A DNA stretch of 64,000 nucleotides, taken from contig ML996699.1 of the NCBI GenBank assembly GCA_010356995.1, forward strand, positions 341,697 to 405,696. Reading direction: 5' to 3'. The position numbers and the translations under genes were made by a program. Of this stretch, positions 43,929 through 64,000 are shown in pieces (the first letter of the stretch is position 1; every line of letters begins with the position of its first letter). Origin of the DNA: Trichodelitschia bisporula (lineage: Eukaryota). The notes beneath the pieces were generated by a model. The model was given only the letters and a program-made list of their open reading frames with translations, did not search any database and was not told the origin of the DNA.

Positions 43929-43999
43929 GGCCTGTACATAAACTTGTGCGTGCGTGTAAATATTGACAGCGGCTCGAAGCCTCACCTAATACTCCAAAT

Positions 44000-45712
44000 C
44001 TAGTCATCTCCCTTTTCGGGAATCGGGATGTCGTCAGCGTCGTCCAGATGGGCCCGGAGACCGCTCTTCCCCACATTCATCGCCCGATCGAGCTCCATCT
44101 CCTCCTCTCTGAGCCTGCCACGTCCGTACGCGAGGTCCTTCTGCTGTTTGCGTTTCGCCTCCTGGACGCGCCGCTCCCGTTCCGCCAATGCCTTTTCCCG
44201 GCGCTCGCGCTCCCTGCGCTGGGCCACGAGTTCCGCTTCCTGTTCCGCCGACAGCGGGGCCTCCGGTGGGGGCGGCAGTGTCGAGATGTAAGCTTCGATA
44301 AGCGGGTCGCGGTCCCTTGGAGAAAGCGAAATGTAGCGCAAATCCGTCAGAATTGAGGGCGGAAGGGAAGCAATAGACGTCGAGCGGTTCAGCGCCGACA
44401 ACGGCGTGCCCTTGAGCAGTGCCGTCAGATCGGCCTTGAGCGTCGAATGCGCCATCTGCAGCCGCTTGACGTGCTCGCGGTACCACTTCTCGCGGTCCTT
44501 GTCCGTGACCTTCGCGTCGCGCATGGCGGGCTCCTTGCGGTACTTGCGCTTGAATTCGGGCCAGTAGAGCTTTGGCGTGGCCTTTTCTTGCAGGAAGGCG
44601 AAGTAGGGGATCTTAGGGTCCTGCTTTTCCTGCTTCTTGCGCTGTTCCTGGAGTTGGTGGATCCGCTCGCGCGACCATTCGTCCCAGAACTCGCGGCGAG
44701 ACCGCATGTTCGGCAGGGCGAGATAGCGGTCGTCTTCGATGATGCGACCTTCTTCGACGATCTGGTCCCATGTCTTGTAGGGGTTGGTGACGAAATCCTC
44801 TAGTAAGTCGCGGAACAGGGCCTTGGAGTCGTCTTCTGTCAGTGGTATGCCCTCGGCGCCCTCCTCCATTTCCTCGTCGCCGAAACCGTACTCCCCGCTT
44901 TCCAGGCCATATTCCTCTCCCATGGCCTGCAGCTGGTAGGCAATATCGTCCTCGTCGAACTCCACGTCCACATCTTCAGGGGGCTCCTCAGTGCGCAGGC
45001 GCTTCGACGGGCCGTCCTCCCCCTCGCTATCCGTAACCTCAACCTCAACCTCCTCATACTCATCGCTTGATCCGCCCGCCTCATCCGGCTTGCTCGGCCC
45101 CTCAACCGTAGCAACCGGCTTTTCCTCCGGCTCGGCCGGCCCCTTCCCAGCCTTCTTCCTGGCCTCTGCTATGTCAAACTCAAGCACACCCTTCAGTACA
45201 TCCTCCGGAATCTTCCAAAAACTCTCTCCCGTTTCCGTATTATGTACGAACCGCCGACCGAGCTTCGTCTTGACTAACACCCAGGCGTCGAACCCAGGAA
45301 TGACATACTTGTGTTTCGGCCGGTCGGCCGGCTCCCGCCGTCGATCTTGATACCCATGACCGCCGCGGAAGCTTGCGTGCCCGCCTCGTGCTGACGATTC
45401 GGAGCCCTGGAACTGGCCTGCGTTGAATCCGCCCGCGAAGGCGCCGGAGGCGTAGCTTGGGATGGGGGCTTCCTGTTGCAGGAAGTGCGGTTCGATTATG
45501 GGGCGTTTGTAGGTCGATTGCTTGGTCTCAGCGTGATAGTAGTAGGTGTGGCCTGCTCTGTTAGCTATGCCGAGACGTGCAGCAGGCGGCATACCGGCGG
45601 GCGCCTTGTGCTCCGTCCATCCCGGTGGCAGCGGCGGAAGCGCAGGCGCTGCAGACGTGGATGGTGCAGGCTCTGCAGGTTTCTGATTGAGGTGATATGT
45701 AGACTTCAACAT
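44000..45712 (-). CDS. WW + FF domain splicing/elongation factor (Dre4/Urn1/TCERG1-like)
   Basis: WW domain [30 protein letters not shown] after removing a short in-frame intron; second WW-like motif; FF domain FRDLLEDF...RREFWDEW. Confidence 0.85.
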   Translation of the reverse strand: [570 protein letters not shown]

Positions 45713-45836
45713 ATCGGCGTGTGTGCTAGTCAGTAACAAGTGGTGGTAGATCAGACGCGCAGATCAAAAGAAGTCGCCAAAACCGAGATGATGTTGGATG
45801 CGGAGGCTTGGCGCGGCGTCGACCTTCTTACGCGTT

Positions 45837-45842
45837 GGAGCT
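45837..45842 (+). promoter_or_regulatory. GGAGCT, Pezizomycotina-type proteasome (Rpn4) element
   Basis: GGAGCT ~100 bp upstream of the PRE9 ATG, with GGAAGCT nearby; the motif is short, so chance occurrence is possible. Confidence 0.35.
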
Positions 45843-45940
45843 TGCCTAGCTGGAAGCTCACAACGCCGCATCACCACCACCCCCTCCAAAACCACCCACA
45901 CCCATCCATCTCACTTGTCTAACCCGTCTACGCCGCAATA

Positions 45941-46835
45941 ATGTCAAGACGCTACGATTCCCGCGTATGTCCATCGCCCGTCTCACCGCCCGCTAGCTAA
46001 CGCCCTCCCAGACAACCATCTTCTCGCCCGAAGGGCGCCTGTACCAGGTCGAGTACGCCCTAGAGGCCATTTCGCACGCCGGCACCGCGCTCGGCATCCT
46101 CGCGCAGGACGGAATCGTGCTGGCAGCCGAGCGCAAGGTGACGAGCAAGTTGCTGGAGCAGGACACGTCGGCGGAGAAGCTGTACATTCTGAACGAGTGC
46201 GTCCCCGCCCCCCGCCCCAACAAATATCTAACCGCCCAGCAACATGATCTGCGCCGTTGCGGGCATGACCGCCGATGCCAACATCCTGATCAACTACGCG
46301 CGCCAGGCGGCGCAGCGCTACCTGCTGACGTACAACGAGGATATTCCGTGCGAGCAGCTGGTGCGGCGGCTGTGCGATCTGAAGCAGGGGTACACGCAGC
46401 ACGGTGGGCTGCGGCCGTTTGGTGTTAGCTTCATCTATGCGGGGTATGATCCGCAGCGGCAGTTCCAGCTGTACCAGAGCAACCCGAGTGGCAACTATGG
46501 CGGGTGGAAGGCGACGAGCGTGGGGGCGAATAACACGAGTGCGCAGTCGCTGCTGAAGCAGGACTACAAGGAGGAGTGTGATCTGAAGGAGGCGTGTGGG
46601 CTGGCGGTCAAGGTGTTGAGCAAGACGATGGACTCGACGAAGCTGAGCAGCGAGAAGAGTGAGTGGCTTGTCGCGAGATGGGGCTCGGCTAATGTGTGCA
46701 GTCGAGTTTGCTACGGTCGGCAAGACCAAGTCTGGCGAGGTTTACCACCATCTATGGAGTGCTGAGGAAATCGACGCGTTGCTCAAGGAGCATGGGCTAG
46801 CGAAGCCCGAGGACACGGACAATGCGGAGAGCTAG
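45941..46835 (+). CDS. PRE9: 20S proteasome subunit alpha-3
   Basis: [49 protein letters not shown]; three introns. Confidence 0.96.
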
Positions 46836-48595
46836 GGTGGTGCGATGGGGTACCTTAGGCGGCGCTCTCGGAATATGACATAGATACTTGGGTTATGACT
46901 TCAGCGTGATGGCAGTGTTCGATGTAGGGTGGAGCAGTCAATGAGGAGCTTTCGTTGCATCACGGAGCGAGGCGTCACAACAGGCACATGTCAGGCCATT
47001 GACATGCCGCCCCTCAATGAATACGATAAATACCAGTCTATCCTACGACCAAGCATAAACAACCCCTGTTCTCACGGCACCCAAGCTGAATATGCCGGCG
47101 GCGACGTCCTCTCGAAGACGATGTACATGCCCTTGAATTGGTTCCACAGGTATTGCTTCATGTAGAGGGGAGTGATAACCTCGCCACGTGCTTGGGCGGT
47201 AAGCTTCGCTGCAGCGGTGACGAAGTAGCGGTTGCTCTCTATGGTGACGAAAGGATCGAACTTGAGAAAGAGAGTTTGGTCTAGCCGTCAATGGGTTGTC
47301 GTCGTAAGACTTATGACGGAACCCACTGTTGTCCAACCACCTACAGAGTCGATGCATCTCCATAATCCGCAGGGTTCCTCCCTTGTACACGAGCACAGGT
47401 CTATGGCTGTGGTGGTTGACGCCGGTCGTCGCGGAGCGGCAGTTCCATGGTGGGCGAGAGTGGCATGTGCAGAGGGTTTGCCAAATTTGCAAGAGGCGTC
47501 GCAGGGCGGATGGAGACATCAGGTCGGTGTGCGATGGTGAGGATAAAGGGAGCTCTTAGGACCGATGCGCGGAGGTTTCATTCCGATTGCTTGCAGGAGA
47601 TCGTGTCGTGGTCATCGGACAGCTGGAGTAGAACGTCTTGTTGCCCCTCTGCACCAAGCACCCGTCCGTACCTGCTTCGGCGGGGCGAAGTACACGCTGT
47701 ATATGCCTTCCATCCAGTATCAACGCCTTGCCCCAAAGCCAGGGCATTCGCGGATATCCGCACAATCCGAACGTCCAACCTCCACGGTTCTCCACACTCC
47801 ACTCAATCTTTGAATCGGGTCTTATCCTCCAGTCAAATATTTCATAGATATCCGTTAGGTAATTGCCTCTCCCAAGGAAAGTGTCCTTCGTCATTTCCTA
47901 GGACTGAGCAACCCTCTTTCCGATCACTCACGGCTTCTTTACGGGTACGATACATCCAAAGGCCGCTGGACATCTGACTGCCTCTTTCAGCACATGTCTA
48001 GACAAAAGAACGTCAAGAACCCAAAGGTGAAGTCCAGGACTGGATTCTAGCTACGAGCTTCTCGCCGACAGACAGCTGGTCTTGCGTCGTCCAGGGAGCT
48101 GAAGTCGCGGGAGCCGACGGGCCGAAAAAGGCGTTGCCGAATTGGAGTCACTAGGCCGCTTCGGCTCCGGCGCAAGAAAGCAGGCCGTTACCGCTTGACG
48201 CGTTCGAACAGCGCCAATGCCGACGTAGTTACTCCAGTCGTTCATGCTATCGACAGCTCCAAGATACTTTCAACATGACGCAATGCCCTTCATTCAAGCT
48301 CTGAACTTGCTCCAAATTCCTGCACAACCACCCTCACTAAAAAGAGCAATCCCCGCGCCACACCCTCCCGAAGCGGAAAAAGGGGCGGCACCGCGCATGC
48401 TAACTGGCCAACAAAATCCAACACAATCCCAAAGCAGCAAACCCAGCAAAAGCAATAAAAACTCCGTAACGTGATCCCAGCGACTCGGAAGTACTCCGAA
48501 AAGAAAAGCCCCCGTCGACTACATACGTACTCTCGCTCGTCAATTAGCCTCCGGAACTCAAAAGGCGTGTTTTCTCGACGCCTGAAATTCCGGCC

Positions 48596-50126
48596 ATGCC
48601 TTCCTCGCCCTTCGTCGTTGACCCGAACTTGACCCGGCCTGATAACCTCGTGCTACGCTCGCTGATCCGCGACGTTGAGCGTGGCTCACCTAAGCTGCGG
48701 ACAGGGGGGAGCCTGGCTGCGTCGAATTTCACTTCACGACTTGCGGGGGAGGGCAGCGAGGCCGAGAGTGACGCGAGTGGGCGTGCGCGACCCAATGGGA
48801 AGGAAAACTCGCGGAAGCGCTTAGGAAGGGATGCGCGTAGGTCTAGAGCTCCCCAGATGTCCAATTTTCCCTCTGCGCGACCGCCTACTAACTTCCAAAA
48901 GCTGCGGAAACCGGCGATGAGGCTGCAGCTCAGCTCCCCGACGACAATACCATCCTCGCACACCTCGCCGCTATCAACAATCCCAAGGATCCCGCCTTCG
49001 AGCCCACCGTCATCGTCTCCAAAGACCTGCCCTTAACCGCAAACCCCATCATCGACACATGGCTTCTACAGCCGTACATCGCCTGGGCGCGCCGCGTCGT
49101 ACGCGTCCAAACCGACGTCGTGATGCTAACCCACCTCCTCCTCTACTTCAGCACCTCCGTCCCCAGCGCCATCCTCCTCTTCCTCCACTTCTCCTACCCG
49201 CACGCCGTCATCCACTTCGTCATGCAAATGTACTACGTCGGGACATACACGCTCATGATGCACCAACACATCCACATGCGCGGCATCCTCGCGCCGCAAT
49301 ACCGGCTCTTCGACACCATTTTCCCGTACATCACCGATCCGCTCATGGGCCACACTTGGAACTCGTACTTCTACCACCACGTGAAGCACCACCACGTCGA
49401 GGGGAACGGGCCCGCAGACTTATCGTCTACGCTGCGGTACCAGCGCGACTCGGCTCGCGACTTCCTGCGGTATTTTGGACGGTTCCTGTTATTCGTCTGG
49501 CTGGAGCTGCCGCGTTACTTCCTGCGCAAGGGCAAGCCCGGGCTCGCGGTGCGCACGTTTTGCTGGGAGGTCTCGTCGTACATCATGATCGCTCTGGCGG
49601 CAGGGGTGAATCTGCGTGCCGCTGTTGCAGTACTTATGTTGCCGCTTTTCTTCATGCGGATCGGCTTGATGGTCGGGAATTGGGGGCAGCATGCTCTGGT
49701 GGATGAAGAGGAGCCGGACTCGGATTATCGGAGCAGTATCACGCTCATTGACGTTGCGGTGCGTTGTGTATCCCCCATTTTTGCTGCCCCATGCTGATGT
49801 TTTAGTCGAATCGCTTCTGCTACAACGACGGGTATCACACGTCCCACCACCTCAACCCGCTTCGCCACTGGCGTGACCATCCGTCTGCGTTCCTTAAGGG
49901 GAAGGCTACATATGCGGAGCAGCATGCGCTGGTGTTTCATGATATCGACTACATCATGCTGACGGTGCGGCTGTTGACGAAGAACTACACGGCGCTGGCA
50001 AGGTGTCTTGTGCCTATTGGCGAGGCGCAGATACGGCTGAGCTTGGAGGAGAGGGCGGAGATGCTAAGACGCAAGACGCGGAGGTTTAGTGAGGAGGAGA
50101 TTAAGGCGCGGTTTGCGAAGGCGTGA
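48596..50126 (+). CDS. Membrane fatty-acid-desaturase-superfamily protein of unknown specificity
   Basis: Histidine boxes HQHIH, HHVKHHH, GYHTSHH and NWGQH; probable introns 48837-48901 and 49759-49805. Confidence 0.85.
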
Positions 50127-51185
50127 TGGTGCATGGCAGGTGTCTTTTGTGGAGTTGAGCATATAGACGGGCGCTGGTCTAAGAGCAATGTAAGGTTGGG
50201 ATAGACGTGCATTTGTCGGGCTTTGGGCTATCTCGGGTAGGGTGATTAGTACTGTTGCTTGGTTGGCAGCCTACGAGCATAGACAGGCGTACTCACAACC
50301 AACTAGAAAAACTCAACCCTTCCAAACTGATCCAACTGGTCCCCCGCTATCCCCGCTATACCCCGCGAGCAATCCACTAGAACTAACCTCCACGTTTCAC
50401 CAATCTCGCCTTCCGCCGTCCTCCACCCCACACCCCTCTGCGTCAAAGCCCAATGTCTGCAAGCGTCGTGTGGCTATCCGAGCTGGTGATGGAGGGAGAC
50501 AGTAACGGCCTATCTCTTTGGTCAGTTGGATCAGGCTGGCCGTGTCCAAATGCGGAGCAATATACATATCGACACGCCTCGATCCTGTCCCTCCGCCCAT
50601 CGCCAACACATGCGTGCCACATCGTGACGCGCAGTCCGACTCCACCCCCTGTTCATCACCGTTTAATTGCCGCATTGTCAACGGGCGTAGAAGCGCGGAG
50701 TGTCCGCGAGAGCCTCCAAGGTCGCATTGGCGCCCAAGGGCGAAGTTGGCAAAGCTCAGCCTGATTCGGGTTCAATATGATCTCCAGTTCTAGAGACGTT
50801 CACGTGGATCATGACTCCTCGTTAGCATGCCTGATGTGTCTCTATTCAGACGTATCTGTCCAATTTTTCCCGTTCTCATAAGATTTTTGCTCGTAAAGAT
50901 ACTGGATGGTCTGGAAACTGGTGGATGTTCCACCTCTGTTAACAAGGCTGTGAGCCTACGCCTTGCATTGCTGGGAGAGGTCGGCACTGCCATCTTATTC
51001 GCATCGGGTAACACTCCCAGTTCCTATGTCTGCCCGATTGGTGGCCATTACCACAATAAATGTTGTAGTTGCTGTACTTGCTCAGGAGCTTTCGGATCAA
51101 CTTCAACTCTCACGACTTCACCCGCCATTTTCTCTCCAGACCATTACCGGCACGCGGCCCAGCTATTCCCCGTCCTTGCCATACT

Positions 51186-51529
51186 ATGACTACAGAAGAG
51201 CAACATCTTCCCGATCTCCATGGAGTGGGCTACATCCCCTCTCGTTCCGTTACACCCAAGGTACGCCGCCCTCGTTGTCATGTTAAATCCCAAACCGAGC
51301 AAACACCACTAACGACATCCAGAGAGCAGGCGCCAGGCTGAAACTAGTCACCTGCTCCCTCTGCGACGGCTTCGGGGAATACGATAAGAAGTGCGCATCG
51401 TGCGATGGTGCTCGGATCGAACGGGAGAGGGGTATGCATGCACGTGAGGAGTGTTTAGCCTGCTGTGAATACGGGGCGGTGTTGGTTGAATGTGAGGCCT
51501 GTGACAACAGTGGCCAGTTTTTGGCCTAG
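51186..51529 (+). CDS. Stand-alone DnaJ-type (4x CxxC) zinc-finger microprotein A, 93 aa
   Basis: Exon 51186-51260, intron 51261-51322 (GTACGC...CTAAC...CAG); exon 2 encodes CSLCDGFG, CASCDG, CLACCEYG, CEACDNSG. Confidence 0.7.
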
Positions 51530-51917
51530 CTCTGCGGAAAATGGGGAACGGCAGATGTATTACGGGTACTGGTATTTTTTCTGAGTGGTCCAGCGGCGAG
51601 GCCAGCTGGTCTATGGGCTTGCCTTTTCTTTTGCCTGAAGCATTCAGGGATAGAACTGGAGAACGTCTCGAATGCTGCCTGCAAGGCTGAGCTGGCGCCT
51701 GGAGCATGCTGGAGAGGTTGGCATTGGCATTGGCATTCGCATGCGGTGACATCCCGTTGTCTGCAAGTCTGCACAATTTTGATGGCTATGTGCCTCGACG
51801 TATAAGTTGTCGTTGCTTCACTTCATTCGCAGCCTTGTCTGTCCACTTTAACCCCTTCAACTCACCCGCACCGTTCCATCCAGCGTCCACCTACACCCAA
51901 ACCAGCTCTCACCAGTC

Positions 51918-52348
51918 ATGTCTTCCCACCAATCTTCCCACCAAGTAAGCCGCCTCACCATCACGTTGACTCCCAGAACCCACAAGCTAACCAACCCATC
52001 CAGCCCAGCAGCACCCGCTCCAAAACGGCGCGGTGCAACATCTGTTACGGCAACGGGCAATACGACCGGGCCTGCATCCCCTGCGCCGGTTCCGGGTCCC
52101 TCGTAAGAACCATACCGGCCGGAAATGCTCAGAACCCAGGACCTCAGAACCTGAGATCCCGGGACTTGAAGCTTCGGAATACAAAGGGGCGGGACACTAG
52201 GCCTCAGTATGCGAATGAGGATACGAATGAGGAGCAATATCTGGAGGAATGCTCTGAATGCTCGGGCACGGGCATGGTGACTTATACTTGTAACTATTGC
52301 GATGGTGGTCACCAAGATGGGGCCACGGTCGGGGAATGTGGGTATTAG
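51918..52348 (+). CDS. Stand-alone DnaJ-type (4x CxxCxG) zinc-finger microprotein B, 123 aa
   Basis: Exon 51918-51944, intron 51945-52003 (GTAAGC...CTAAC...CAG); exon 2 encodes CNICYGNG, CIPCAGSG, CSECSGTG, CNYCDGG. Confidence 0.75.
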
Positions 52349-52604
52349 GATGTGGTGGATGTTGGAGTTAGGCCCGTCTTCATAGTGCTTATACACCCCC
52401 ATGGAATGAGGGACTGGTCAGGCAATGCTTTTGGACTCTGAACGAGCAACGATGGCATCATCGGACAGTACCTTAAGTCTTAGCCTGGGGTCTGCGGAAG
52501 CCTGGTCTGAAGAAGCAGTGAATCCGAACTGGAAGCGGGCTGATCGTTGATCAAGCACTAATCTGGCCCAATACTGCGGGCCAACTATTCCATCATGCAT
52601 CTCT

Positions 52605-55004
52605 CTACGCCTCAATCTCCAACGGCAAAACCTCACCCAAGAACTCCCCCCCCTCCCCCCTAAGCAGGGCATCAATATCCACAACCCCACTCGTCAAATA
52701 CCTCTCACTAACCCCCACATTAACCTTTTGCCTCAACATCCCCTTCAACTCCACCCTCCACGCCGCCACCTCCCTCGGATCAACCATCTGATCCTCGCGT
52801 TCCTTCCTGCGCCGATCATTTCCCCTCCCCCTCTTCCCCCCCTTAACCTCCTCCAAACTATCAAGATCGATCCCCAGATCCTCCGCCGCTTCTTTCATAA
52901 CCAAATCCTCGCTATGCTTCTTCTCCTTCGCGCTCACCACATCCGCAATCTTCTTCGCCAGGTCAGCGCGCGCCTTGAGCTTGGCGACTACCCGCCGATC
53001 AACGTCGACGTTGCGCATCCCCCGGCCCCCGCGCTTGCGATGTACTTTCCCGACAAGGCGGCCGTACGCCTTCGCCTCCTCCGGCGCGCAAATAACCACA
53101 CTCGCCCCACCAGCCCCCGCCCGCGCCGTCCGCCCCGCACGGTGGATATAATCCTCCGCCGTGCGCGGGAGGTTATAATGCACCACCAGCTGCACATCCG
53201 CGATATCCAGTCCGCGGGCCGCCACATCCGTCGCCACCAATATCGAGTTCTCGGTAGAGGCAAAGCGCTCCAGAGCCCTGAGACGGGCTTTTTGGACCAT
53301 CTGCGAGTGGAGGGCGAGGGCCGGGAGGCCTAGGTTTTGGAGGAAGGGGGTCAGGCGCCGGACTGCGTGGACGGAGTTTGTGAAGATGAGGGTGCGGGTG
53401 CGGGGGTGCATTACCAGCAGGGCGTAGGTGTATAGGTCTTTTTCTTTGGCGATGCATTGCAACAGGCCCTCGCGGAGCTGCGCCGCGGTATGCGTTGTCG
53501 GGTCCACGTCGATGAATTTAGGCCCGCCGGCGCGGAAGTGCAGCTTCTTTAAAAGGAACTCGAGGGATGCTTCGTGGTTGGCTGGGTCGCCGGTGGACTT
53601 GCTCTTGCCCGCGAGTTTTTGGTGCAGGCCCTTGTGGAAAGTGGCGCTGAAGATAAGGGTCTGCCGGTCGGGACGCGGGGCGGGGGCGCTGGGGACAGCG
53701 TTATCTCCTGGATTCTCTGAGACGGTGATTTCGCCGTCCAGCGCGTTGATAATGGCGTCCAGCTCCTTGAAGTGGCCCTGGCTGAGGAGCCGGTCTGCTT
53801 CGTCGAGGACGAGGAAGTGCACTTGGCGCAGGCGCTTGACGGCGCCGGGGGCGCTGGACATGACTTCCCAGAGGCGGCCGGGAGTTGCGATTATGACGGA
53901 GCTGACGTCAAGGAGACGTTGCTGCTTTTGAATGGAGAGTCCGCCGGTGATGGTTGCTACCTTGGGACCGTCCGTGCCCTCGGCGAAGAGGGCGGTGAGA
54001 TGGGTTCCGATTTGGTGGGCTAGTTCGCGGGTGGGGGAGAGGATGAGGGCTAGAGGGGGGGTCTTGCTGCTGTTGGTCATATTTTTGCTTAGATAGTGTT
54101 CCAGGATGGGGATGCCGAAGGCGAGGGTTTTGCCTGAGCCCGTTGATGCCTTGCCGATGACGTCGCTGCCTGCGATTATTTCTGGGACGGCGGCGGCTTG
54201 GATGGGGGTAGGGCGCTGGAACTTGAGCTTGGAGAGTGCTGCCATGGTTCCGATGGAAAGATCCAAGGGCTGCCACTCCGAGACATCGACGCCGTCCTCA
54301 TCTTCCTCCTCCTCTTCCAGGAGACCTGCGAACGGGACACTGGCGATGATCGTCTCAGGTGCCTTCTCCTTCTTCTCCTTCTTCTCCTTCTTCTCCTTCT
54401 TCTCCTTCTTCTTCTTCTGGGGTTCTTTGGCAGGCTCAGGAGCAGCCTTGCCCTTCTTCTTCAGGATTCCCTTGATGGAAGCAGGCTCCTCAACAGGAGA
54501 AGGAGCCGCAGGCGTGTTATCACTATCTTCAAATCCTTTCCACTCCTCCTCTGTCTCCTCAGCTGCAGAGGCAGTAGCTGTTGCGTTCGACTGTCCTTTG
54601 GATTTGGTCCCATGCTCCTCGTGATCTTGTCCATTGATATGCGATTCCGCACTGCCGTTTGTAGCTTTCCCAGTACCGTTGGATTCGGGTTCTGCAGTGT
54701 CCTCGACTTCGGGCCCAGTGTCCTCGTCCACCTCGCCCAAAAGCGCAGGCTCCTTCGTCTTAAACCACCCCATTCCACGCTCATCCCTCTCAAAGTCCAC
54801 GCCATCAATCTCTTCGAGCCCAAAGAAGCCCTCATAGTCGTCCAATTGATCGGGGATCTCAACTTCCTTCCATGGCAGCTCGTCGAGGCGGACGGCACGG
54901 GCTGGGCGGTTAGATTTCGTTGAGGATACGCCGTTGGATTTGGGGCGCTTATTAGGCTTCGCGCCGGAGGACGTCGCCTTGCGCTTCTGTTGTCCAGAAG
55001 CCAT
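52605..55004 (-). CDS. MAK5: DEAD-box RNA helicase Mak5 (60S biogenesis)
   Basis: GFFGLEEIDGV N-terminal motif, Q motif, STGSGKT, PTRELA, DEAD, SAT, HRAGRTAR; KE repeat. Confidence 0.93.
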   Translation of the reverse strand: MASGQQKRKATSSGAKPNKRPKSNGVSSTKSNRPARAVRLDELPWKEVEIPDQLDDYEGFFGLEEIDGVDFERDERGMGWFKTKEPALLGEVDEDTGPEVEDTAEPESNGTGKATNGSAESHINGQDHEEHGTKSKGQSNATATASAAEETEEEWKGFEDSDNTPAAPSPVEEPASIKGILKKKGKAAPEPAKEPQKKKKEKKEKKEKKEKKEKAPETIIASVPFAGLLEEEEEDEDGVDVSEWQPLDLSIGTMAALSKLKFQRPTPIQAAAVPEIIAGSDVIGKASTGSGKTLAFGIPILEHYLSKNMTNSSKTPPLALILSPTRELAHQIGTHLTALFAEGTDGPKVATITGGLSIQKQQRLLDVSSVIIATPGRLWEVMSSAPGAVKRLRQVHFLVLDEADRLLSQGHFKELDAIINALDGEITVSENPGDNAVPSAPAPRPDRQTLIFSATFHKGLHQKLAGKSKSTGDPANHEASLEFLLKKLHFRAGGPKFIDVDPTTHTAAQLREGLLQCIAKEKDLYTYALLVMHPRTRTLIFTNSVHAVRRLTPFLQNLGLPALALHSQMVQKARLRALERFASTENSILVATDVAARGLDIADVQLVVHYNLPRTAEDYIHRAGRTARAGAGGASVVICAPEEAKAYGRLVGKVHRKRGGRGMRNVDVDRRVVAKLKARADLAKKIADVVSAKEKKHSEDLVMKEAAEDLGIDLDSLEEVKGGKRGRGNDRRRKEREDQMVDPREVAAWRVELKGMLRQKVNVGVSERYLTSGVVDIDALLRGEGGEFLGEVLPLEIEA

Positions 55005-55216
55005 GTTTGCGGTAGTGGTATGTCGGTTGTAGTGAAGTGAGAGTTGAATCGAAGTGTCGCGAACGACTATCCAGAAATCTTTTGCGCACGGACCCATCCA
55101 AAGTTGTAAGCGCGGAGAAGCTGCGGGCCGTGACTCTGTCAGAAAGGAACATCAACCCCACTAGCCGACCATCAACCAAACCTCACAGCAACAAACCGTG
55201 CCCAAAATCGTTCGAA

Positions 55217-56287
55217 ATGGGCAAGTCTTCCAAAGACAAGCGCGATGCCTACTACCGCCTAGCCAAAGAACAAGGCTGGCGCGCCCGCAGCGCCTTCAAA
55301 CTCCTCCAACTCGACGAAGAATTCAACCTCTTCGAAGGCGTCACCCGCGTCGTCGATCTCTGTGCCGCGCCGGGAAGCTGGAGTCAAGTCCTCTCGCGCA
55401 TCCTCATCAAGGGCGAATCCTTCGGCCGGTCAGCATGGGAAGATCGCTTTGCTAGAGACAGAATGGCCGCTTTCGGCCTCCCGTCCCCCCCGGAAGAACC
55501 GGCTGAGACCCCGCAATTGAAGCCCAGGAAGGACGTCAAAATCGTCTCCATCGACCTGCAACCCATGAGCCCACTAGAAGGCATAACAACCCTCAAAGCC
55601 GACATCACGCATCCCTCCACCATCCCCCTCCTCCTCAAAGCCCTAGACGAGGACTACGACCCCTCCTCCCCCTCCGCCGCCCAGCCCGTCGACCTCGTCA
55701 TCTCCGATGGCGCCCCGGACGTCACCGGCCTGCACGATTTGGATATCTACGTCCAGAGCCAGCTCCTCTGGGCGGCGCTGAATCTCGCGCTCTGCGTCCT
55801 CAAGCCAGGCGGCAAATTCGTCGCGAAAATCTTCCGCGCGAACGAGGTTGATCTTTTGTACGCCCAGCTGCGGGTCATGTTTGCCCGCGTGCACGTCTCA
55901 AAGCCGCGCAGCAGTCGCGCAAGCAGCATCGAAGCCTTCGTCGTATGCGAGGGCTTCCAACCACCCCCCGGCTTCAAAGCCAGCCTCGAGAACCCCCTCG
56001 GCCCAAAGTCTGTCCCCGCAAAGCTCGAGCCCCAGGCCCCGTTGAGGACGGTGCGTGAGGACGGCGTCACGGTCCTCGATCTCGGCGATGAAGAGGACGG
56101 CCGCTGGATTGCCCCTTTCCTGGCCTGCGGCGACCTTTCAGCCTTCGACTCGGACGCTACGTATCAACTGCCTAAGGACAGGGTGACACTCGACCCTGTG
56201 CAGCCCCCGACGGCGCCGCCGTATCGAAGGGCTTTGGAGATGCGGAAGGCGGCTGGGGGGGCGTATGGGAAGACGAAGGGCGTGTAG
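55217..56287 (+). CDS. TRM7: tRNA (C32/G34) 2'-O-methyltransferase Trm7
   Basis: MGKSSKDKRDAYYRLAKEQGWRARSAFKL, DLCAAPGSWSQV, DGAPDVTG, PVQPPTAPPY. Confidence 0.96.
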   Translation: MGKSSKDKRDAYYRLAKEQGWRARSAFKLLQLDEEFNLFEGVTRVVDLCAAPGSWSQVLSRILIKGESFGRSAWEDRFARDRMAAFGLPSPPEEPAETPQLKPRKDVKIVSIDLQPMSPLEGITTLKADITHPSTIPLLLKALDEDYDPSSPSAAQPVDLVISDGAPDVTGLHDLDIYVQSQLLWAALNLALCVLKPGGKFVAKIFRANEVDLLYAQLRVMFARVHVSKPRSSRASSIEAFVVCEGFQPPPGFKASLENPLGPKSVPAKLEPQAPLRTVREDGVTVLDLGDEEDGRWIAPFLACGDLSAFDSDATYQLPKDRVTLDPVQPPTAPPYRRALEMRKAAGGAYGKTKGV

Positions 56288-56825
56288 GGAGTTCGCGCTG
56301 GGAGATGAGGTCGCTAAACGACTAATCCTTGCGCGCGTGCCTGCTGCTGCTGTTCGTATTGGAATGGTGCCTACGGGATGACGGACTGAGGCCCTGGGCA
56401 ATGGCTCCCCGGCACTGAGGCGCTGAGGGCTTGGCTGGGCATGCGGCGAGGGGTTTGGATGCGATCTCCAGTCCCGCATTGAGGATGATGGGACTTTGAG
56501 ATCTTTATCGGCTTGAGCCAAGCGGCGGGATCATCAGAGAAGCTGCACTGTTCCCAGTTTATCCCGGCCGATGAACGCTACCCATCGACTCAAGGCACGA
56601 CCATCTCCGCACCACGACCAAGGAAACGCACGACTGTGCCCCCACTTCCCCATGCCTCACTTCCAATCCGCGTGGTTCGACGGATTGGATTTGGGAAGGG
56701 ACAAGCCGTTAAATCTGAAGCTCATCCCTCGAGACGGGTAGACACCAACAGATTTTCAACGTTTCGACGCCTCGATGGACAAGCTTCAGATCTAACGGCT
56801 TATCCCTTCTCAAACGTTCAATCCA

Positions 56826-57046
56826 TCTCTTCCACCAGGCTTCTGTCTCCCAGTCCTCATGAAGATCGATAAATACCTCTTTGTAACGATAGGTAGAAGG
56901 CTGTGGTGCCGCAATAAAGGATCCAGGACTTTGAGATGTCCATGACGATCTTTGAAGGCTGCACCATCGCCTTCCCCCTCTTGTTACAACGATGCTTTTG
57001 TTGGTCTTCAGGAGGACTCCCAGGAGACAGAGCCTGGTGGAAGAGA
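56826..57046 (+). repeat. ~221-nt imperfect inverted repeat (fold-back hairpin, candidate small-RNA precursor)
   Basis: Perfect 16-bp outer stem TCTCTTCCACCAGGCT (56826-56841 / 57031-57046); pairing continues for ~100 bp to a GGAC-TTTGAGAT-GTCC loop at 56926-56941. Confidence 0.85.
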
Positions 57047-57742
57047 ACGCACATGGCCCAAGGTTCGGAAGCACTAGGCCTTGTTACTCGCCAGCTCAAG
57101 TGACGAACATCCGCGCTGTATTCAAGGGCATGATGAATAACAATATATCGATCGAATTCCCCAGACGAGCTCAGGTCCCGACTGAGAACACTTACCGGAA
57201 GCCTGCAAAAGTTCCCTTAATTCTTACACGTCGGGAGCACTAGCCGCGCACATTCTTTTCGATGCCTTTCGGGGACGAAAATATATCTGTATTGGATTCT
57301 TCTGACTACATGGGCACGAGGCGGCGTTGTTTGGCACGGCTTGAGTCCCCCGGCTTATGATGCGGCCATTTTCCTGCTCTCGCCCCGGGTGTGTAGGATA
57401 GAATCAACTCCCTGCCATCTCACACGTTATTCACCAGCTGCTTCGTGACGTGCAATATTTTCTGCTTCCCCCCTTATACGTTCAGCATCCGTTGTTGTAA
57501 CCATTCTTCGGTAGCCGCGATGTCATCCTGCATTCATTCCGCTCCTAGCGGAATTCCCCCGTCGCGCTAGTGCAACACCTAGCAACGCGCCTTATCAGTC
57601 TCCGCATCAACGCCACGGCCTTGCCCCGCAGCCTGATCGCCGCGGCAGAGCTTACCCCTCACCTATAAAGAAACTCCCATTCTCTCCCCCACTCACCCAT
57701 CTCCCCTCAGCTCCCCCTTCCGTCTTACACCCATTGCGCAAA

Positions 57743-59553
57743 ATGTCAACCTACCTCGAGCGCGGCGCAGCCCGGCGCGCCGAAATCGACGCCGCGATCC
57801 CAGAAGAATGGCGCCTCCCCTCCATCCCCTCCCCCTCAGAGCAGCGTGACATCACGGGGCCCTACATCTGGCAATTCCTCACCTCGCGAGAAAAGGAAAT
57901 CACCGAGACAGAAGCCGAAGCCATCGTCCAAAACACAACTTCCGGCACCTGGACCGCCGTCGAAGTAACCCGCGCCTTCTGCCACCGCGCCGCCATCGCG
58001 CACCAACTAGTAACCCTCCCCCCCACTTCACCCTCAGTATCCTCGCTAACACCCGCAGCTAAACTGCCTCCACGCGCCGCTCTTCACCGCCGCGCTGGCC
58101 TCGGCTGCTGAACTGGATGCGCACCTCGCAGCAACCGGCTCCCCCGTCGGGCCCCTCCACGGTCTACCTATAAGCCTCAAAGACCAATTCCATGTCGCAG
58201 GCACGGATACGAGCATGGGGTACGTCGGCTGGATCGGGACCTTCGAGGGCAACGCCGACGATCCGCGGACCGGGGTGTTCGAATCGGAGCTTACGAGCGC
58301 GCTGCGCGGCCTCGGCGCTGTTATCGTAGCTAAGACTTCCGTACCGCCTAGCTTGATGGCGGGCGAGACGCGGAACTACATTGTGGGGAGCACGTTGAGC
58401 GCTAGGAATAGGTTGTTGAGCGCGGGGGGGAGCAGCGGGGGCGAGGGGGCCTTGCTAGGCGCCCGCGGGAGTGCGCTCGGGTGGGGCACGGATATAGGTG
58501 GGAGTGTGCGGATTCCCGCCGCGTTTAACGGCTTGTATGGGCTCAAGCCCAGCACGGGCCGGATGCCGTATGAGGGCGCGGCGAATAGCATGGATGGGCA
58601 GAATAGTGTGCTGTCCGTAGTCGGGCCGTTGGGGAACAGCGTGTCCGCGTTGAGACTCGGGTTCAAGGCCGTGCTTAGCACGCGGCCGTGGGAGCGCGAC
58701 CCGCTGTGTCTCGAGATCCCGTGGAGAGAGGACAAGGCGGTTCTTCCTTCGAAACTGCGGTTCGGGGTTTGGAAAGACGATGGCGTGGCGCGGGTCACGC
58801 CGCCTGTGCAGCGCGCGTTGGATGTTACGGTCATGAAGCTGCAAGCCGCGGGACACGAGGTGCGCTTTCCCCCCCCTTCCCACGCCGACCGCAGCTGATG
58901 AAACCTAGGTCGTGCGCTGGGCGCCGGCGCCGGAGTTTCAGGAGGAGATCACGGCGCTGCTGGCGCAGGTGTGGGCCTTCGACGGCGGGGCCGACATCCA
59001 CCGCGCGCTGGGCCTGAGCGGCGAACCGCCCATCCCGCCCATCGAAGCTGCGTTCGGGACTTCAGCGAGGCCGGCTATGGATGCGGGGCAGGTGGCGGCT
59101 GTGAATGTGCGGATCCGGAAGGTGAGGAAGGGGTACCTGTATTGGTGGCAGAGCAGGGGTGTGGATGCGATTATTGCACCCGTGGCGCCGGTGCCAGCTG
59201 CGCGGGAAGGGATGTATGCGGACTATGGGTATACGATGTGGGTTAATTTGCTGGATTATGCGAGTGTGGTAGTGCCGGTTTCGAAGGTGGATAAGGGGTT
59301 TGATGGGGTGGTGGAGGGGTATGAGCCGCGGAATGAGCAGGATAGGATTTGTTGGGAGAGTTGTGAGTTGTCCTGCTTTCTTTCTGGGTTGAAACTGTGG
59401 GTTTTGGGAGCGGATGACTGACTTCGACTAGATGATCCCGAGATCTTCGATGGCGCCCCGATCGCTCTGCAACTGGTAGGCCAGAGACTGCAGGAGGAGA
59501 AGATGCTGGCAATTGCGGACGTCGTGGTTGAGGTACTCAAGGGCTATGAGTAG
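57743..59553 (+). CDS. Amidase-signature family enzyme (acetamidase-like)
   Basis: GPLHGLPISLKD, GGSSGGEG, GTDIGGSVRIPAA; introns 58010-58058, 58860-58908 and 59363-59431; TATA-like TATAAA at 57664. Confidence 0.93.
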
Positions 59554-59742
59554 TTGGGCCAGCATGCACTAGATTCCCTATGTACCTATCTTGCTGCAGC
59601 ACTACTCACTTGGATAGATAACACGAGACCAAGTACAAAAACAGACCGAATTGTCGAGTAAACCCCTAAAACCCATCCCCGCGCCATCATCAGCTCTTCA
59701 TCTGGCTCACCAACACCAAGGGGCGTCATATCCGCCACAGGC

Positions 59743-62700
59743 TCACAGGAGGGGAACGAGGTCCAGATCCGGAATCTTGCGAATCCACGTCGGCAGAAGC
59801 TTCTTCGCATCGCGGGACGACTTGTCGGTGACGTCCAAGTCAAACTCCTCAAACGCCGCCTCCTGAACCCGGGCCGCCTGCTTGAGCAATTCCGCAACCG
59901 TCTGCTCACGGAACATTTCTCCAGGCCCACAGTGGTTCTTGAAGAAGTTGTACCAAAGATCAGGACCTACACATATTAGTTCAATCCTTCCGTGAGACAT
60001 TCCTCCTTACCTGCATGAGTCTGCAAGCCAGCCGCAAGCGTGACAAGCTCGCGCTCAGACCACGGCTCCATTGGCTGCGGCGTATGCGGAATCTGCGAGC
60101 CCGACCTCCGCGCATGGAACATCTCCAGCCGCTCAAACGGAAAGCCGTTCGCATCGATAGACAACGCGTTCGGGTCCGGCAGCTTCGGCGTCCGCAACTT
60201 CGCCTTGCGCCTAAAGTCCGGCTCGAACTCGCGCCGCTGCGCATATAACAGCATAAGACGCGCCTTTAGGACCTCGAACTTTTCCTTTTTCTCCATAAGA
60301 CGGCGCTCCTCGGACAGACGCAGACCTAGGTCCTGCGTCTCCGCGGCTTGCTGCTCGATGCAGATTTTCATACCGCACCATTTCACGATGAGGGCACGCA
60401 GATGTGGAAGTGAGCCGGCCTTGATGTACTTGGAGAGGCCGAGCCGGCGCAACGGGCGTAGGGGCCAGTTAGCAAGGACGTTGAGGCAGGAGCTCACGGC
60501 TTCGGCGAGGCGGATGAACGAGGTGAGCACGGGGATGCTAGCGGGTCGAGTGGCCACCTCGACGAAGCTGAGGCAGGCACGCTCGAAAAGGCCGACAAGA
60601 GCGGGCCACACCAGGGCGTGTGCTTGGTCGATGTAGTTTTGGTGCTCGGCTGGATCGGAAATCTTTACCTGACCGAGCTCCTGGGAGAGCATGAGGAGGA
60701 CGTCGGCCGCCTCGGCTAGGGTTTCCACAACGTTTTCGACAGTACGAGGGCTCCGGAAATGATCCTTCGTGTTTTGGATCTGCTGGCGAACAACGCGAAC
60801 GATGGGGTCGAGCGGAGGCTTGCCGAAGACCTGATTGACGTGGTCTTTGTATTTTCTGTTGTCATTTCTCAAGAGGCGAAGGAGGGAACCGGCCTCGTGA
60901 AGCAATGCATCTATAGCCTTAACATGAGGGTCGATATCCTCTTCAGAGTCGGATGGTTCGATGCCCTCAACCGGATCGTCCTCGCTGGACTCGTCTGGAG
61001 TCATGAAAAGGTCGTCGTCGTCTTCCTGGCCTTGCACACGTTCCTTCTGATGGCCAGCCCCATTAGTTCCGTTCGCTGCCTGCTGCTCATTAGTCTGGGT
61101 TTCCTCCTCGTCGGATTCATCGTCTTCCTCGTCGGACTGATCATCTTCTTCATCGACCTCATCATCTTTGTAAGCTTCATCATCCTTGCCGGCCTCATGA
61201 TCTTCCCTGGCCTCATGATCTTCGTCGGTCTGATCTTCTGCGTCGACAAGATCAAGTTCCTCGATTTGGGCACCTTCGCCGGCTTGATCATCAGCGACTT
61301 GATCATCGGTGACTTGATCATCTTCGACGACTTGATCATCCTCGACGGCTTGATCATCTTCGGCAACCTGATTAACTTCGTCGGCCTGATCAGTTAGGTC
61401 GGCTGGAACTTCTTCGCCGGCTTGGTCATCTTCGTCGATCTTATCTTCATCTTCCGACGACTCATCGCTTGAAATGACAATCGGACGACGACGCCGTTCA
61501 GCCTCTGGAATAGCAGGGGGGTCAACCTCCATAGACTGTCCAGGAAGCGGAGTCTCCGCTGGGGGTGTCCACTGAACTTCCTTGGCTGGATGAGCACTAG
61601 GAGCAGGTTGATCAAGGATACGACCGGAGGAAGTCGACTTGCGGTTGGCCTTACTGACAGGAGACTTTGATGCTGATCTTCCGATACGGGGGCGCTTGGG
61701 GGTTGAAGCGTCGGGTTTATCAAGGACACCACCGGGGCGAAACGACTTGCGGGCAGCCATTGTGGTTATGGCGTCCCTTGGTGAGCTCCTCGTACGGGCG
61801 CGCTTGCTGGTCTGAGCCTTGAGCTCGTCCTCGTGTACGAAAATCGAAGACTCCTTCGGGTGTGTCCTCTCAAAGTCCAGGGCGGGAGGAGTAGGAGAAT
61901 CAGGTTGATCAAGGGGACCACCAGACGGAGCTGACTTGCGGCTGGCCATAGATGCCAAGACTTTGCGACCCCTGGGGATGGGAGCCTCAACCTCGTCCTC
62001 GTCAACTGAACTCGAACTCTCCTTCGGGGATGTCCTCTCAACATCACGTTCCCGTATCTTAGCGTCATGGTCCTCGTTCCAATCGTCATCTTCCGGAGAA
62101 GTAGGAGAGTCGGGTAGATCAAGGATACTACCGGACGGAGCTGACTTGCGGTAGGCCGTACTAGCTAAGACACGGCTGCGCTTGGGAATCGGAGCCTCGA
62201 GCTTGTCTTCGCGTACGGAAATCGGAGTCTCCTCCATGGGTGTCCTTTCAACACCCTGGGCCGGAGGGGCAGGAGGATCAGGTTGATCAAGGACACCACC
62301 GGACAGAGCTGACTTGCGGGCAGCCCCCAATCTTTTGAAGTACTCTCTACCTGATATTCCGGGAGGGCGGGTGCGCTTGCTGGGCGGAGCCTCAGATTTA
62401 TCCAGGACCTCACCGGGTCGAACCGACTCGTGGTACGCATTCATGGCTTCGTTGTACCTGAAGTCGTGGTTGTGCGTGGAATGCGGAGTCTCCTGCCGGG
62501 GTGTCCTCTCATCATCATGACCCGGACACTCATCACCATGTTCTGGACAAGGAGGAGAATCGGGTAGATCAAGGACACCACCGGACGTAGCTGACTTGCG
62601 TATAGCCCTCATTTTCAGAGAACAGTCTGGATTTGATGTTGCGGGAAAGCGGATACCCTTGCTGGGCGGAGCCTCTAACCTTTTCCCAGGCCGTCGATGT

Positions 62701-64000
62701 GATAGCACGTTCTCCTGAGGTTCTCCGGGCTGTTAGCATAAACTGCTTGGCTTCATATAGGCTAGGGGCTTACCTGCTCCCTGCGGCGTACCCGATATTG
62801 TCGCATCGTCATCGACGAAACCGTAGCCTTGGGCGGGCCCTAAAATATCGCGCAGGGACGGGATCAGATATCGCGGATGCGGACACCACTCGTCTCCTAG
62901 GCTAGCTGCTACCTCCTCCGCATCCGGCGCGGCGCCTTCCCAGCCGGCCTCAAGCCACGTGATTGCCAGGTTAACGTCGCCGACCTGGAATGCCTCAAGG
63001 AGTGGCCGCCCGCGGCCCCCGTCTCGCAACAAGCCGCTCTTCCTCCGGTCTAGAAAGGCGCGCGCAAGGGAGCCAAGGACTTCCGACTCGCTGCGGTGAT
63101 CCAATAGGGAGAGGCGGGCAAGGCGGGCGAGGCGCTTAAGCAATGTGCTCGACGGTTTCCCCTCCGGCCGCTGAACTAGGGCGGTTGGGTCGAGGAGGAG
63201 GCTGCTAAGTCTCTTGTAGCCGGTGTCGCGTATCGTCTTCATGTCTCGCCTCCACCGGGCGTCTGTGATGCGCTCGTCACTGCGGTGATTCTTTAGTTCC
63301 CCCACGGTCGCGTCCTCCAGGTGTGTTCTCTCAACATCCGGGATCGGAGGCGTAGGAGGAGCAGGATGCTCAGGAATACTATAGGACGGAGCATCATGAT
63401 TGAAGATACCGCCGGGCGGGGCAGGATGATCTAGGACACCACTGGACGGAGCAGGGTAATTATGAACACCACCAGACGGAACAGGATAATTAAAGACCCC
63501 ACCGGACGGGGCAGGATAGTCAGGAACACCACCGGCCGGAACAGGATGATCACGAACACCACCGGACGGAGCTGACTCGCGGTGGGCCTTACTGGCTAGG
63601 AGACGGTAGCGCTCTGGGACTGGAGCTTCGAGCACGTCTTCGTGTACGGAAATCGGTGTCTCCTCCGGGTGTCTCCTATCAACATCCTGGGCCGGGGGAG
63701 TAGGAGAAGCAGGTTGATCAAGGATACTACTGGACGGAGCAGACTTGCGGGCAGCCTTTGAGGCAAAGCCAATCCTTGGTTTGCTGATACGGGCGCGTTT
63801 GGGGTTCGGAGCCTCGAGCTCGCCTTCGTATCCGGAAACCGCCTCTGGGGCTGTCGACTCAACATGTTGGGCCGAAGAGGTGGTAGAATCAGGTTGATCG
63901 AGGCCTTGGACACCACAGAACAGAGCTGACTGGCGGGCTGACTTATTGGCCACAAACTTCGATGCTGAGCCTGGAACACTGGGGCGCTTGCCGTTCGAAG
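59743..64000 (-). CDS. Large putative nuclear protein: H3-tail-like repeat region, acidic tract, helical domain and C-terminal Myb/SANT-like domain; 5' end lies outside the window
   Basis: Frame open from 64000. Probable intron 62773-62723 joins the 406-aa and 910-aa ORFs. Intron 60010-59967 gives PWSERELVTLAAGLQTHAGPDLWYNFFKNHC...LPTWIRKIP; stop at 59743. Confidence 0.75.
61100..61450 (-). repeat. Acidic coding repeats (EDDQxV/EDHEAx, ~18-bp units)
   Basis: Repeated TGATCATC/TCATGATC units encoding a D/E-rich tract. Confidence 0.85.
61600..63950 (-). repeat. Nine dispersed coding repeats with core (LAS)xAxRKSAPSGGxLDxP
   Basis: Plus-strand anchor GACTTGCG (RKS) at 61636, 61744, 61933, 62143, 62311, 62593 and 63742; variants at 63574 (RES) and 63928 (RQS). 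Confidence 0.92.
63355..63575 (-). repeat. 30-bp tandem repeat (~7 units, P(A/V)PSGGVxxx)
   Basis: SAPSGGVRDH PVPAGGVPDY PAPSGGVFNY PVPSGGVHNY PAPSSGVLDH PAPPGGIFNH DAPSYSIPEH. Confidence 0.9.

Follow-up and report, generated by a model that had tools for sequence, protein, structure and literature searches.

A ninefold histone H3 tail-like array in a transcribed Myb-type protein gene of the fungus Trichodelitschia bisporula

INTRODUCTION

Can a protein that is not a histone carry the tail of histone H3 many times over, and if it does, is the likeness put to use? The question is raised by a minus-strand gene at the end of a 64,000-nucleotide stretch of Trichodelitschia bisporula DNA (GenBank assembly GCA_010356995.1, contig ML996699.1, positions 341,697 to 405,696; referred to here as the window, with positions counted from its first letter). 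The gene codes for a protein in which segments resembling the H3 tail around K27 and S28 recur in tandem. Known histone mimics are single short motifs of viral proteins and of a few cellular ones, and a preliminary description of this DNA, drawn from the letters alone, proposed that the array is a multivalent K27-tail mimic. We find that the likeness to H3 lies far beyond chance and that the gene is transcribed and spliced in frame; the evidence that selection has maintained the likeness is neutral to mildly negative.

RESULTS

The array resembles the H3 tail around K27 far beyond chance

The nine H3-tail peptides listed in the preliminary description are all present, in the order given and in a single minus-strand frame (Table 1). 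The N-terminal half of the protein consists of nine copies of a unit of 36 to 96 amino acids, together with one decayed copy. Alignment of the units gives the consensus lEAPxpKRxR, an insert of 0 to 9 amino acids, laskAaRKSApSGGv, LDqPdsptxP, and axdvERTxpxEtpxsvxede, with a tail that ends in an HEDE-type sequence. The H3-like part of the unit, LASKAARKSAPSGGV, corresponds to H3 residues 20 to 31 plus GGV, and the core spans H3 (16/20-35), so that the proposed tracking of the H3 tail by the consensus is borne out. By majority, the nine cores give the consensus LASKAARKSAPSGGVLDQP, and its first 12 residues agree at 12/12 positions with H3 20-31, for which the reference LASKAARKSAPS was taken from a PDB chain. 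Ungapped identity to this reference is 11, 10, 10, 10, 7, 7, 7, and 6 of 12 in eight copies and, by manual count, 5/12 in the ninth.

These identities are well outside what composition alone provides. The array holds eight segments with at least 6/12 identity to H3 20-31 and four with at least 10/12, compared with a mean of 0.25 segments at 6/12 or better (largest number, 3) in 2000 composition-preserving shuffles of amino acids 1 to 830; the best identity in any shuffle was 8/12, reached in 3/2000. Searching the PDB with raw translations (phmmer) placed H3 tails (residues 16 to 45) at or near the top, individually at E values of 0.2 to 1.4. A profile of the nine cores, built from 35-amino-acid segments and run against 177,635 distinct PDB sequences, matched 119 chains at E≤10, and each of the best 60 of the 119 is an H3, an H3 variant, or an H3 K27-region peptide (one of these being filed as Cse4 and one named by its residues alone). 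A fungal-type H3 18-37 peptide gives the best match (E value of 6.7e-5).

Units 3, 6, and 7 resemble H3 over a longer stretch: upstream, P-R/K-x-R-x-L-A-S stands against H3 P16-R-K-Q-L-A-S, and downstream the match runs to G-G-V and to a proline spaced like P38. Lysines K36 and K37 have no equivalent in 8/9 copies. The context around the central lysine is of the K27 type (KAARKSAPS) and not of the K9 type in most copies. The array thus matches the histone tail around a modifiable residue far beyond chance. It does so in a non-histone setting, as had been proposed: across the three coding pieces Pfam reports no family at E≤1 and hence no histone fold, and the PDB matches cover the H3 tail 16-45 alone. 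The loose motif [AS].R[KQE]S[ATF] occurs nine times in the array frame, versus three times in the remaining six-frame translation of the 64-kb window.

The flanking signals named in the preliminary description, NLS (nuclear localization signal)-like KRxR, LDxP, and SP/TP sites, are likewise present. The repeat region has KRxR-type motifs, LDxP, and 8 SP and 12 TP sites, and is rich in proline (12.7%), serine (10.8%), and alanine (9.6%); the N-terminal half of the protein is presumably disordered. Two further elements bear on the history of the array. A sub-array of about seven 10-amino-acid units follows unit 3; here only the APSGGV..P half of core 3 has been multiplied, independently of the main array, and RKS is left out. 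The decayed tenth copy has 65% identity to its reference copy in the repeat finding and scores as a weak hidden Markov model (HMM) domain (amino acids 501 to 524, 3.3 bits); it shows that copies have been lost as well as gained.

The gene is transcribed and spliced in frame

The array region lies in two neighboring open reading frames (ORFs) of the same frame, at 62733-63998 (421 amino acids, open at the window edge) and 59976-62732 (918 amino acids) in the stop-to-stop listing, which are separated by one TAA. Two short introns join them into a spliced model of 1,386 open codons with no stop, and the first intron removes the separating TAA (Table 1). As the gene runs past position 64000, 1,386 amino acids is a lower bound for the length of the protein.

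Four public sequencing runs contain the locus and were compared over 59700-64000. X1 and X2 are DNA-type runs from one sample, possibly the window's own source, and X3 and X4 come from one sample of a second study and are presumed to be RNA, although the run listing names no RNA run. The contigs of X1 and X2 are colinear with the locus and skip neither intron, and one contig each of X3 and X4 skips exactly the 51 nt and the 44 nt (plus-strand ends CT..AC; the 44-nt joint is recorded as "cut +2"). The locus sequence is identical, with 0 differing letters, in contigs of the two studies. Both predicted introns are therefore real and the message is in frame through the array: the gene is transcribed and spliced in frame, in accord with the earlier view of an array in a non-histone protein. 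The spliced X3 and X4 contigs reach 1,008 and 1,047 nt past position 64000, and the 5' end of the gene therefore lies outside the window; extra repeat copies may possibly be present upstream.

We note that intron 1 uses the second available AG (the intron ending in CTAACAGCCCGGAG) and not the AG 3 nt past the branch-like CTAAC; had the first AG been used, the reading frame would change and the protein would stop about 50 codons further on.

A fast-evolving family with a Tbf1-type Myb-like end

Behind the repeats lie an acidic tract, a conserved helical domain, and a C-terminal Myb-like domain (Table 1). Pfam finds no family at E≤1 in the protein, and there is no detectable enzyme domain. A phmmer search with the C-terminal 340 amino acids against 1.84 billion representative sequences recovered 23 proteins at E≤0.001, the best at an E value of 3.5e-13 with 34% identity and the only one at E≤1e-10. 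The window's own protein is absent from this library and from the other protein collections searched. Twenty of the 23 relatives were looked up and all 20 are annotated as hypothetical proteins. Six carry organism names, of which four are Dothideomycetes by taxonomy and two, going by their names, we take to be Pleosporales. To judge from these sequences, the protein belongs to a Pezizomycotina family that evolves fast and in which every named member is a Dothideomycete.

The spliced model shares the family's EPDxRR...DANGxPFER motif, its helical domain, and its Myb-like end. With the window's row left out of its making, the family profile matches the model at an E value of 6.5e-56, through the second splice junction to the last residues. 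Run against the PDB, the family profile matches the Myb domains of Saccharomyces cerevisiae Tbf1 (E value of 6.7e-5) and Schizosaccharomyces pombe Trf1/Tbf1 (E value of 9.8e-5), and Atlas gives a weak TRF/Myb lead. An AlphaFold model of relative P0001, made with the family alignment, has a pLDDT of 84.5, and its residues 285 to 365 superimpose on 8x6d_B (Z 8.6, root mean square deviation 2.7, 75 aligned) and 8ynu_A (Z 8.0). The three-helix Myb-like domain at the C terminus is therefore common to the array family and to Tbf1/TRF-type proteins (8x6d, 8ynu) by both profile and structure. The two differ in that K-D-K-A-R-N, the consensus of the Tbf1 third helix (the telomere-repeat recognition helix), is not kept in the profile alignment of the array family, and no TRFH dimerization domain is among the 50 structural matches listed for the P0001 model. 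For the helical bundle of this model, Foldseek finds no match at E≤0.001, and VIA-align returns generic helical bundles at Z≤10.7, under the tool's level for a meaningful helical-fold match.

Several relatives combine an acidic tract with the conserved C-terminal module; P0014 has a Pfam AT_hook, and AT-hook-like GRP motifs are visible by eye in several others. With its KRxR motifs, an acidic tract of net charge -75, a Tbf1-type Myb-like end, and AT hooks in relatives, the array protein looks nuclear and chromatin related, and the family is, by the same predicted features, of a chromatin or DNA-binding type and not a histone one.

The N termini of the relatives have two short motifs, GKLKRPS and [RK]xDxY[DE][IL]xESP[EQ]K, and in 12/23 a DxY[DE][ILV]xxSP-type motif follows GKLKRPS. 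The second of these motifs reads KARKSTYDIDESPEK in P0014, which includes an H3K9-like ARKST, and KRKSNDIYELLDSP in P0015. The first residues of the protein in the window, SNGKRPS, were considered as a counterpart of GKLKRPS that would make unit 1 ancestral; this was rejected, as a combined GKL-to-SPEK HMM gives no match and the Y-motif HMM is weak.

The non-repeat insert between units 3 and 4 has no Pfam family, and a word-indexed search with the first ORF (proteins of 231 to 737 amino acids) finds no relatives of it. Its best PDB match is the MALT1 death domain (E value of 0.22), Atlas gives ankyrin-type neighbors at 0.93 to 0.94 with only 92 to 126 shared features, and a single-sequence AlphaFold2 model is helical at low confidence (pLDDT 44.5).

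TABLE 1 Features of the array gene and neighboring genes in the window
Feature	Coordinates	Strand	Details
Gene, in-window part	59743..64000	-	Stop TGA 59743-59745; 5' end open at window edge; spliced model 1,386 aa
H3-like core 1	63891..63953	-	VANKSARQSALFCGVQGLDQP; K27-equivalent is Q; 2 extra residues
H3-like core 2	63711..63767	-	FASKAARKSAPSSSILDQP; 11/12 identity to H3 20-31
H3-like core 3	63543..63599	-	LASKAHRESAPSGGVRDHP; K27-equivalent is E
Sub-array, about seven 30-nt (10-aa) units PAPSGGVxxY(P)	63354..63572	-	After unit 3; Tandem Repeats Finder period 30, 7.2 copies
Non-repeat insert, ~172 aa, between units 3 and 4	62775..63290	-	Predicted helical; GC about 0.60-0.63
Intron 1	62723..62773	-	51 nt, GT..AG, in frame; holds the ORF-separating TAA; spliced joint seen
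H3-like core 4	62562..62618	-	LKMRAIRKSATSGGVLDLP
Decayed tenth copy	62405..62435	-	...YHESVRPGEVLDK...; S kept, R and K equivalents lost; in long tail of unit 4
H3-like core 5	62280..62336	-	KRLGAARKSALSGGVLDQP
H3-like core 6	62112..62168	-	LASTAYRKSAPSGSILDLP
H3-like core 7	61902..61958	-	LASMASRKSAPSGGPLDQP; PRGRKV directly before; HMMER alignment to H3 16-45
H3-like core 8	61713..61769	-	ITTMAARKSFRPGGVLDKP
H3-like core 9	61605..61661	-	PVSKANRKSTSSGRILDQP
Acidic tract	60939..61472	-	178 aa, net charge -75; 15-21-nt tandem repeats, DDQV/EDHEA-type units
Conserved helical domain	60078..60938	-	Helical bundle, long helix, DANGxPFER motif; 23 relatives and profile match
C-terminal Tbf1-type Myb-like domain	59746..60077	-	Spans intron 2; family profile and structure model of a relative
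Intron 2	59967..60010	-	44 nt, GT..AG; splits Myb-like domain; predicted first, then spliced joint seen
Amidase gene	58050-59418	+	Convergent with array gene
FtsJ-type methyltransferase gene	55016-56284	+
DEAD-box helicase gene	52608-55151	-
WW/FF-domain protein gene	44003-45763	-
Rhamnosidase-like protein gene	41764-43305	+

The neighboring genes (41764-59421; Table 1) are of an ordinary housekeeping type, placing the array in a normal gene-dense region and not in a repeat-rich one. One X4 contig runs 1,805 nt past position 59700 into the convergent amidase gene, which suggests that the 3' ends of the array gene and the amidase gene overlap or abut; a contig over two genes does not prove a single transcript.

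Occurrence of the array in other sequences

Outside the window we found no similar array. Word-indexed searches of 5.8 billion protein clusters gave no matches for the repeat region and C-terminal region (proteins of 504 to 1607 amino acids) or for the first ORF, and a protein-based scan of metagenome contigs gave 147 pattern matches, of which 0 were confirmed. A degenerate DNA pattern for RKSAxSGGxLDxP, which itself catches 3/9 of the copies in the window, was absent from the metagenome, viral, and prokaryotic genome contigs scanned, and megablast of the locus against a plasmid collection gave no match. None of the collections searched is a complete fungal genome collection, so close relatives of the fungus may be unsampled. 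Among the sequences found, the array is restricted to this species. The preliminary description knew of no described fungal protein with a tandem K27-mimic array. This agrees with these searches and with the open-access papers and preprints, in which neither a tandem or multivalent histone-tail mimic nor H3 tail-like repeats nor a fungal H3 mimic turned up.

Conservation within the array

All nine copies (9/9) keep the R26 and S28 equivalents and the D and P of LDxP. The A24 equivalent and the L of LDxP are each kept in 8/9, and A29, S31, and the first G in 7/9 each. The K27 equivalent is K in 7/9 (Q in copy 1 and E in copy 3) and is M or I in 0/9, and L20, K23, A25, and P30 are each kept in 4/9. 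When each copy's divergence is kept and the relatedness of the copies is ignored, the spread of retention between sites is beaten in 166/20,000 permutations, and four invariant columns arose in 64/20,000.

At the protein level the core is indeed more conserved than its flanks, a check that the preliminary description had proposed for the importance of the core, but it is equally so at synonymous sites. Pooled Nei-Gojobori counts of synonymous (pS) and nonsynonymous (pN) differences for each block of the unit give a pS of 0.22 and a pN of 0.23 to 0.27 in the core, 0.46 and 0.47 in the upstream flank, and 0.31 and 0.34 downstream. Because the extra conservation of the core is matched at synonymous sites, it cannot be taken as a sign of purifying selection acting on the protein. 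The codons that the copies share are not accounted for by codon bias, since the GC content at third codon positions (GC3) is lower in the repeats (0.55) than in the C-terminal domain (0.72).

DISCUSSION

Our preferred reading, held tentatively and at a probability of roughly 0.4, is that the array mimics the H3 tail in a multivalent, lineage-specific way, toward the factors that target or recognize the A-R-K-S site. One H3-tail-like stretch would have arisen or been captured once and would then have been amplified with its flanks through unequal recombination or slippage, a process that has continued, as the separate 10-amino-acid sub-array and the decayed tenth copy indicate. In the nucleus, a single chain would present the H3 A24-x-R26-K27-S28-A29 site up to nine times in accessible form, and the array may act as a pseudo-substrate, decoy, or scaffold for factors of the H3 K27/S28 site. 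Candidate partners are an R-x-S kinase/phosphatase pair of the Aurora/Ipl1 type and phospho-readers, Aurora/Ipl1 being the H3S10/S28 kinase; since R and S are invariant but K is not, such a pair is no less likely than a K27 methyltransferase or reader. The centering of the mimic on K27 in the preliminary description therefore holds in part. R-K is kept in 7/9 copies, but the lysine is the least conserved of the three residues, and R and S at 9/9 are no less in keeping with an R-x-S phosphosite or with a partner that reads R and S. The flanking SP/TP sites and the acidic tract may modulate access to the R-K-S sites.

Several observations weigh against the multivalent mimic. Each block of the unit has a pN/pS ratio of about 1, and codons are shared across copies (CGC in 9/9, AAG in 7/9, GCT in 7/9, and TCA in 6/9), a synonymous pattern that recent shared ancestry or gene conversion fits equally well. 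The tenth copy has decayed, two copies lack the lysine, and the alanine at -2 from the lysine, which chromodomain and EED-type readers require, is kept in only 4/9 copies. The repeat-core HMM, which finds nine domains of 47.9 to 57.6 bits in the spliced model, has no match in 29 family sequences (23 representatives and 6 cluster members), the best E value being 0.54 at less than 1 bit; with 0/29, the array is young and dispensable for the core function of the family. Several of these points also speak for the main rival, namely that an H3 5' coding fragment or a chance H3-like stretch was amplified in a tolerant disordered region by unequal crossing-over or slippage and is now drifting close to neutrality, as a generic spacer and NLS-bearing intrinsically disordered region in which no H3-directed factor takes part. 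We regard this as a real possibility. It gains from the low GC3 of the repeats, from the amplification of the APSGGV half alone in the sub-array, and from the absence of the array in the other collections searched. Moreover, known histone mimics need 4 to 6 residues, and a similarity to H3 of about 20 residues goes beyond that need, so that descent from H3 DNA is easier than convergence. Pure drift does not sit easily, however, with a spread of retention that exceeds that of all but 166/20,000 permutations, with R, S, D, and P being the same in every one of the nine copies, or with a frame open across ~2.4 kb of repeats in an mRNA that is spliced in frame; consensus codons such as TCA and CCG are also not those to be expected of a highly expressed H3 gene.

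Other accounts place the function elsewhere. The protein could be a regulator of Polycomb repressive complex 2 (PRC2), its repeats being methylated and activating the complex via EED in the manner of JARID2/PALI1, or titrating or inhibiting PRC2 and K27 demethylases in the manner of NOP16/EZHIP. The K27-type context in most copies and the retention of R-K agree with this, but the lysine is kept less well (7/9) than the R and S (9/9 each), no copy has a lysine at the K36 equivalent, and M or I at the lysine position in 0/9 copies argues against an EZHIP-like action. PRC2 and H3K27me3 are reported from some Dothideomycetes, such as Zymoseptoria and Dothistroma, and equally several fungal lineages are reported to lack PRC2 (PMC7348808); the architecture described for the fungal PRC2 accessory subunit PAS superficially resembles that of the family, yet PAS homologues were reported solely in Sordariomycetes and Leotiomycetes (10.1101/2020.01.06.896845). 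On balance a PRC2 regulator is unlikely. Alternatively, the working part of the unit could be the non-H3 half, with the KRxR import signals and the [VI]LDxPDSP(T)P and ERTxP phospho-motifs doing the work and the H3-like residues as passengers; this half may descend from the N-terminal family motif [RK]xDxY[DE][IL]xESP[EQ]K. The D and P of LDxP at 9/9 and its L at 8/9, the related motif after GKLKRPS in 12/23 relatives, and the sub-array that amplifies the GGV..P part without RKS are all consistent with this, and the best match of the relatives' motif HMM in the model is SILDLPDSPTSP in unit 6. That match is weak, however (0.1 bit, E value of 0.07 for one sequence), the combined GKL-to-SPEK HMM finds nothing in the model, and the 12/12 consensus identity to H3 20-31 is left unexplained, making this account improbable as well. 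That the array is misassembled or noncoding is close to refuted: the absence of the window's protein from the protein collections searched is outweighed by identical sequence in contigs of two studies, by in-frame splicing that removes the sole stop and leaves 1,386 codons open, and by the family profile match.

The multivalent mimic would have no exact counterpart among the histone mimics known to us. JARID2 K116 and PALI1 are K27-type mimic peptides, and G9a/GLP have H3K9-type ARKS/ARKT mimics. NOP16 is an endogenous single-copy H3K27 mimic that binds EED and JMJD3 (10.1101/2023.06.13.544862), and EZHIP has one K27M-like motif, its tandem repeats being of a different 33-bp unit (PMC12713659; 10.1101/585729). 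NOP16, EZHIP, JARID2, and PALI1 are, like the array protein, non-histone nuclear proteins with an R26-K27-S28-like stretch in a disordered region (nuclear localization and disorder being presumed for the array protein). These single-copy mimics have one short motif each, whereas the array protein has nine copies with ~16 to 20 residues of H3 likeness each, and EZHIP has M at the lysine position, as against 0/9 copies here.

K9-type mimics include the automethylation motifs of SETDB1 (10.1101/2025.10.22.683908, 10.1101/2025.01.21.634156) and the ARKS/T sequences of viral NS1 and ORF8, although the role of ORF8 as a mimic is disputed (PMC10833455). They share with the array an A-R-K-S/T core outside histones, which in their case is a docking or modification site. 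They differ in having a K9 context and one or two sites, several of which are auto-substrates of an enzyme in the same protein, in contrast to the array protein with no detectable enzyme domain. Histone H3 itself shares tail residues 16/20-35 with the array; unlike H3, the array protein has no histone fold, no K4/K9/K14 region, and no K36/K37 lysine, and it bears nine copies per chain. Histone mimicry as such is known, and what is novel here is the copy number, the length of the H3 likeness, and the setting in a Myb-type fungal protein.

A more specific proposal, which we consider distinctly improbable, is that the conserved C-terminal module anchors the protein on chromatin or on a complex that modifies histones, where nine K27/S28 pseudo-substrates would regulate an H3-tail-directed enzyme as an activator, sponge, or condensate scaffold. 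Candidates would be a Dothideomycete counterpart of a PAS-like PRC2 accessory subunit or a partner of Aurora/PP1. Neurospora crassa PAS is described as a PRC2 accessory subunit with no predicted domains, a conserved C terminus, and divergent N termini of variable length (10.1101/2020.01.06.896845). The likeness of the two is one of described architecture, PAS homologues being reported there in Sordariomycetes and Leotiomycetes and the named members of the array family being Dothideomycetes. If the tethering proposal is true, this would be the first tandem histone-tail mimic array, a tail copied into a regulator of its own modification.

The consequences differ with the reading. A multivalent mimic, if true, would be a natural bait for H3 K27/S28 factors and a handle on avidity, pseudo-substrate regulation, and possibly condensates in fungal chromatin. 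It would also be among the few cases in which a histone-tail sequence can be seen to have been copied into another gene and then amplified. A drifting relic would instead be a warning that a striking likeness to a histone need not mean mimicry. On either reading, the repeat peptides are ready-made test substrates.

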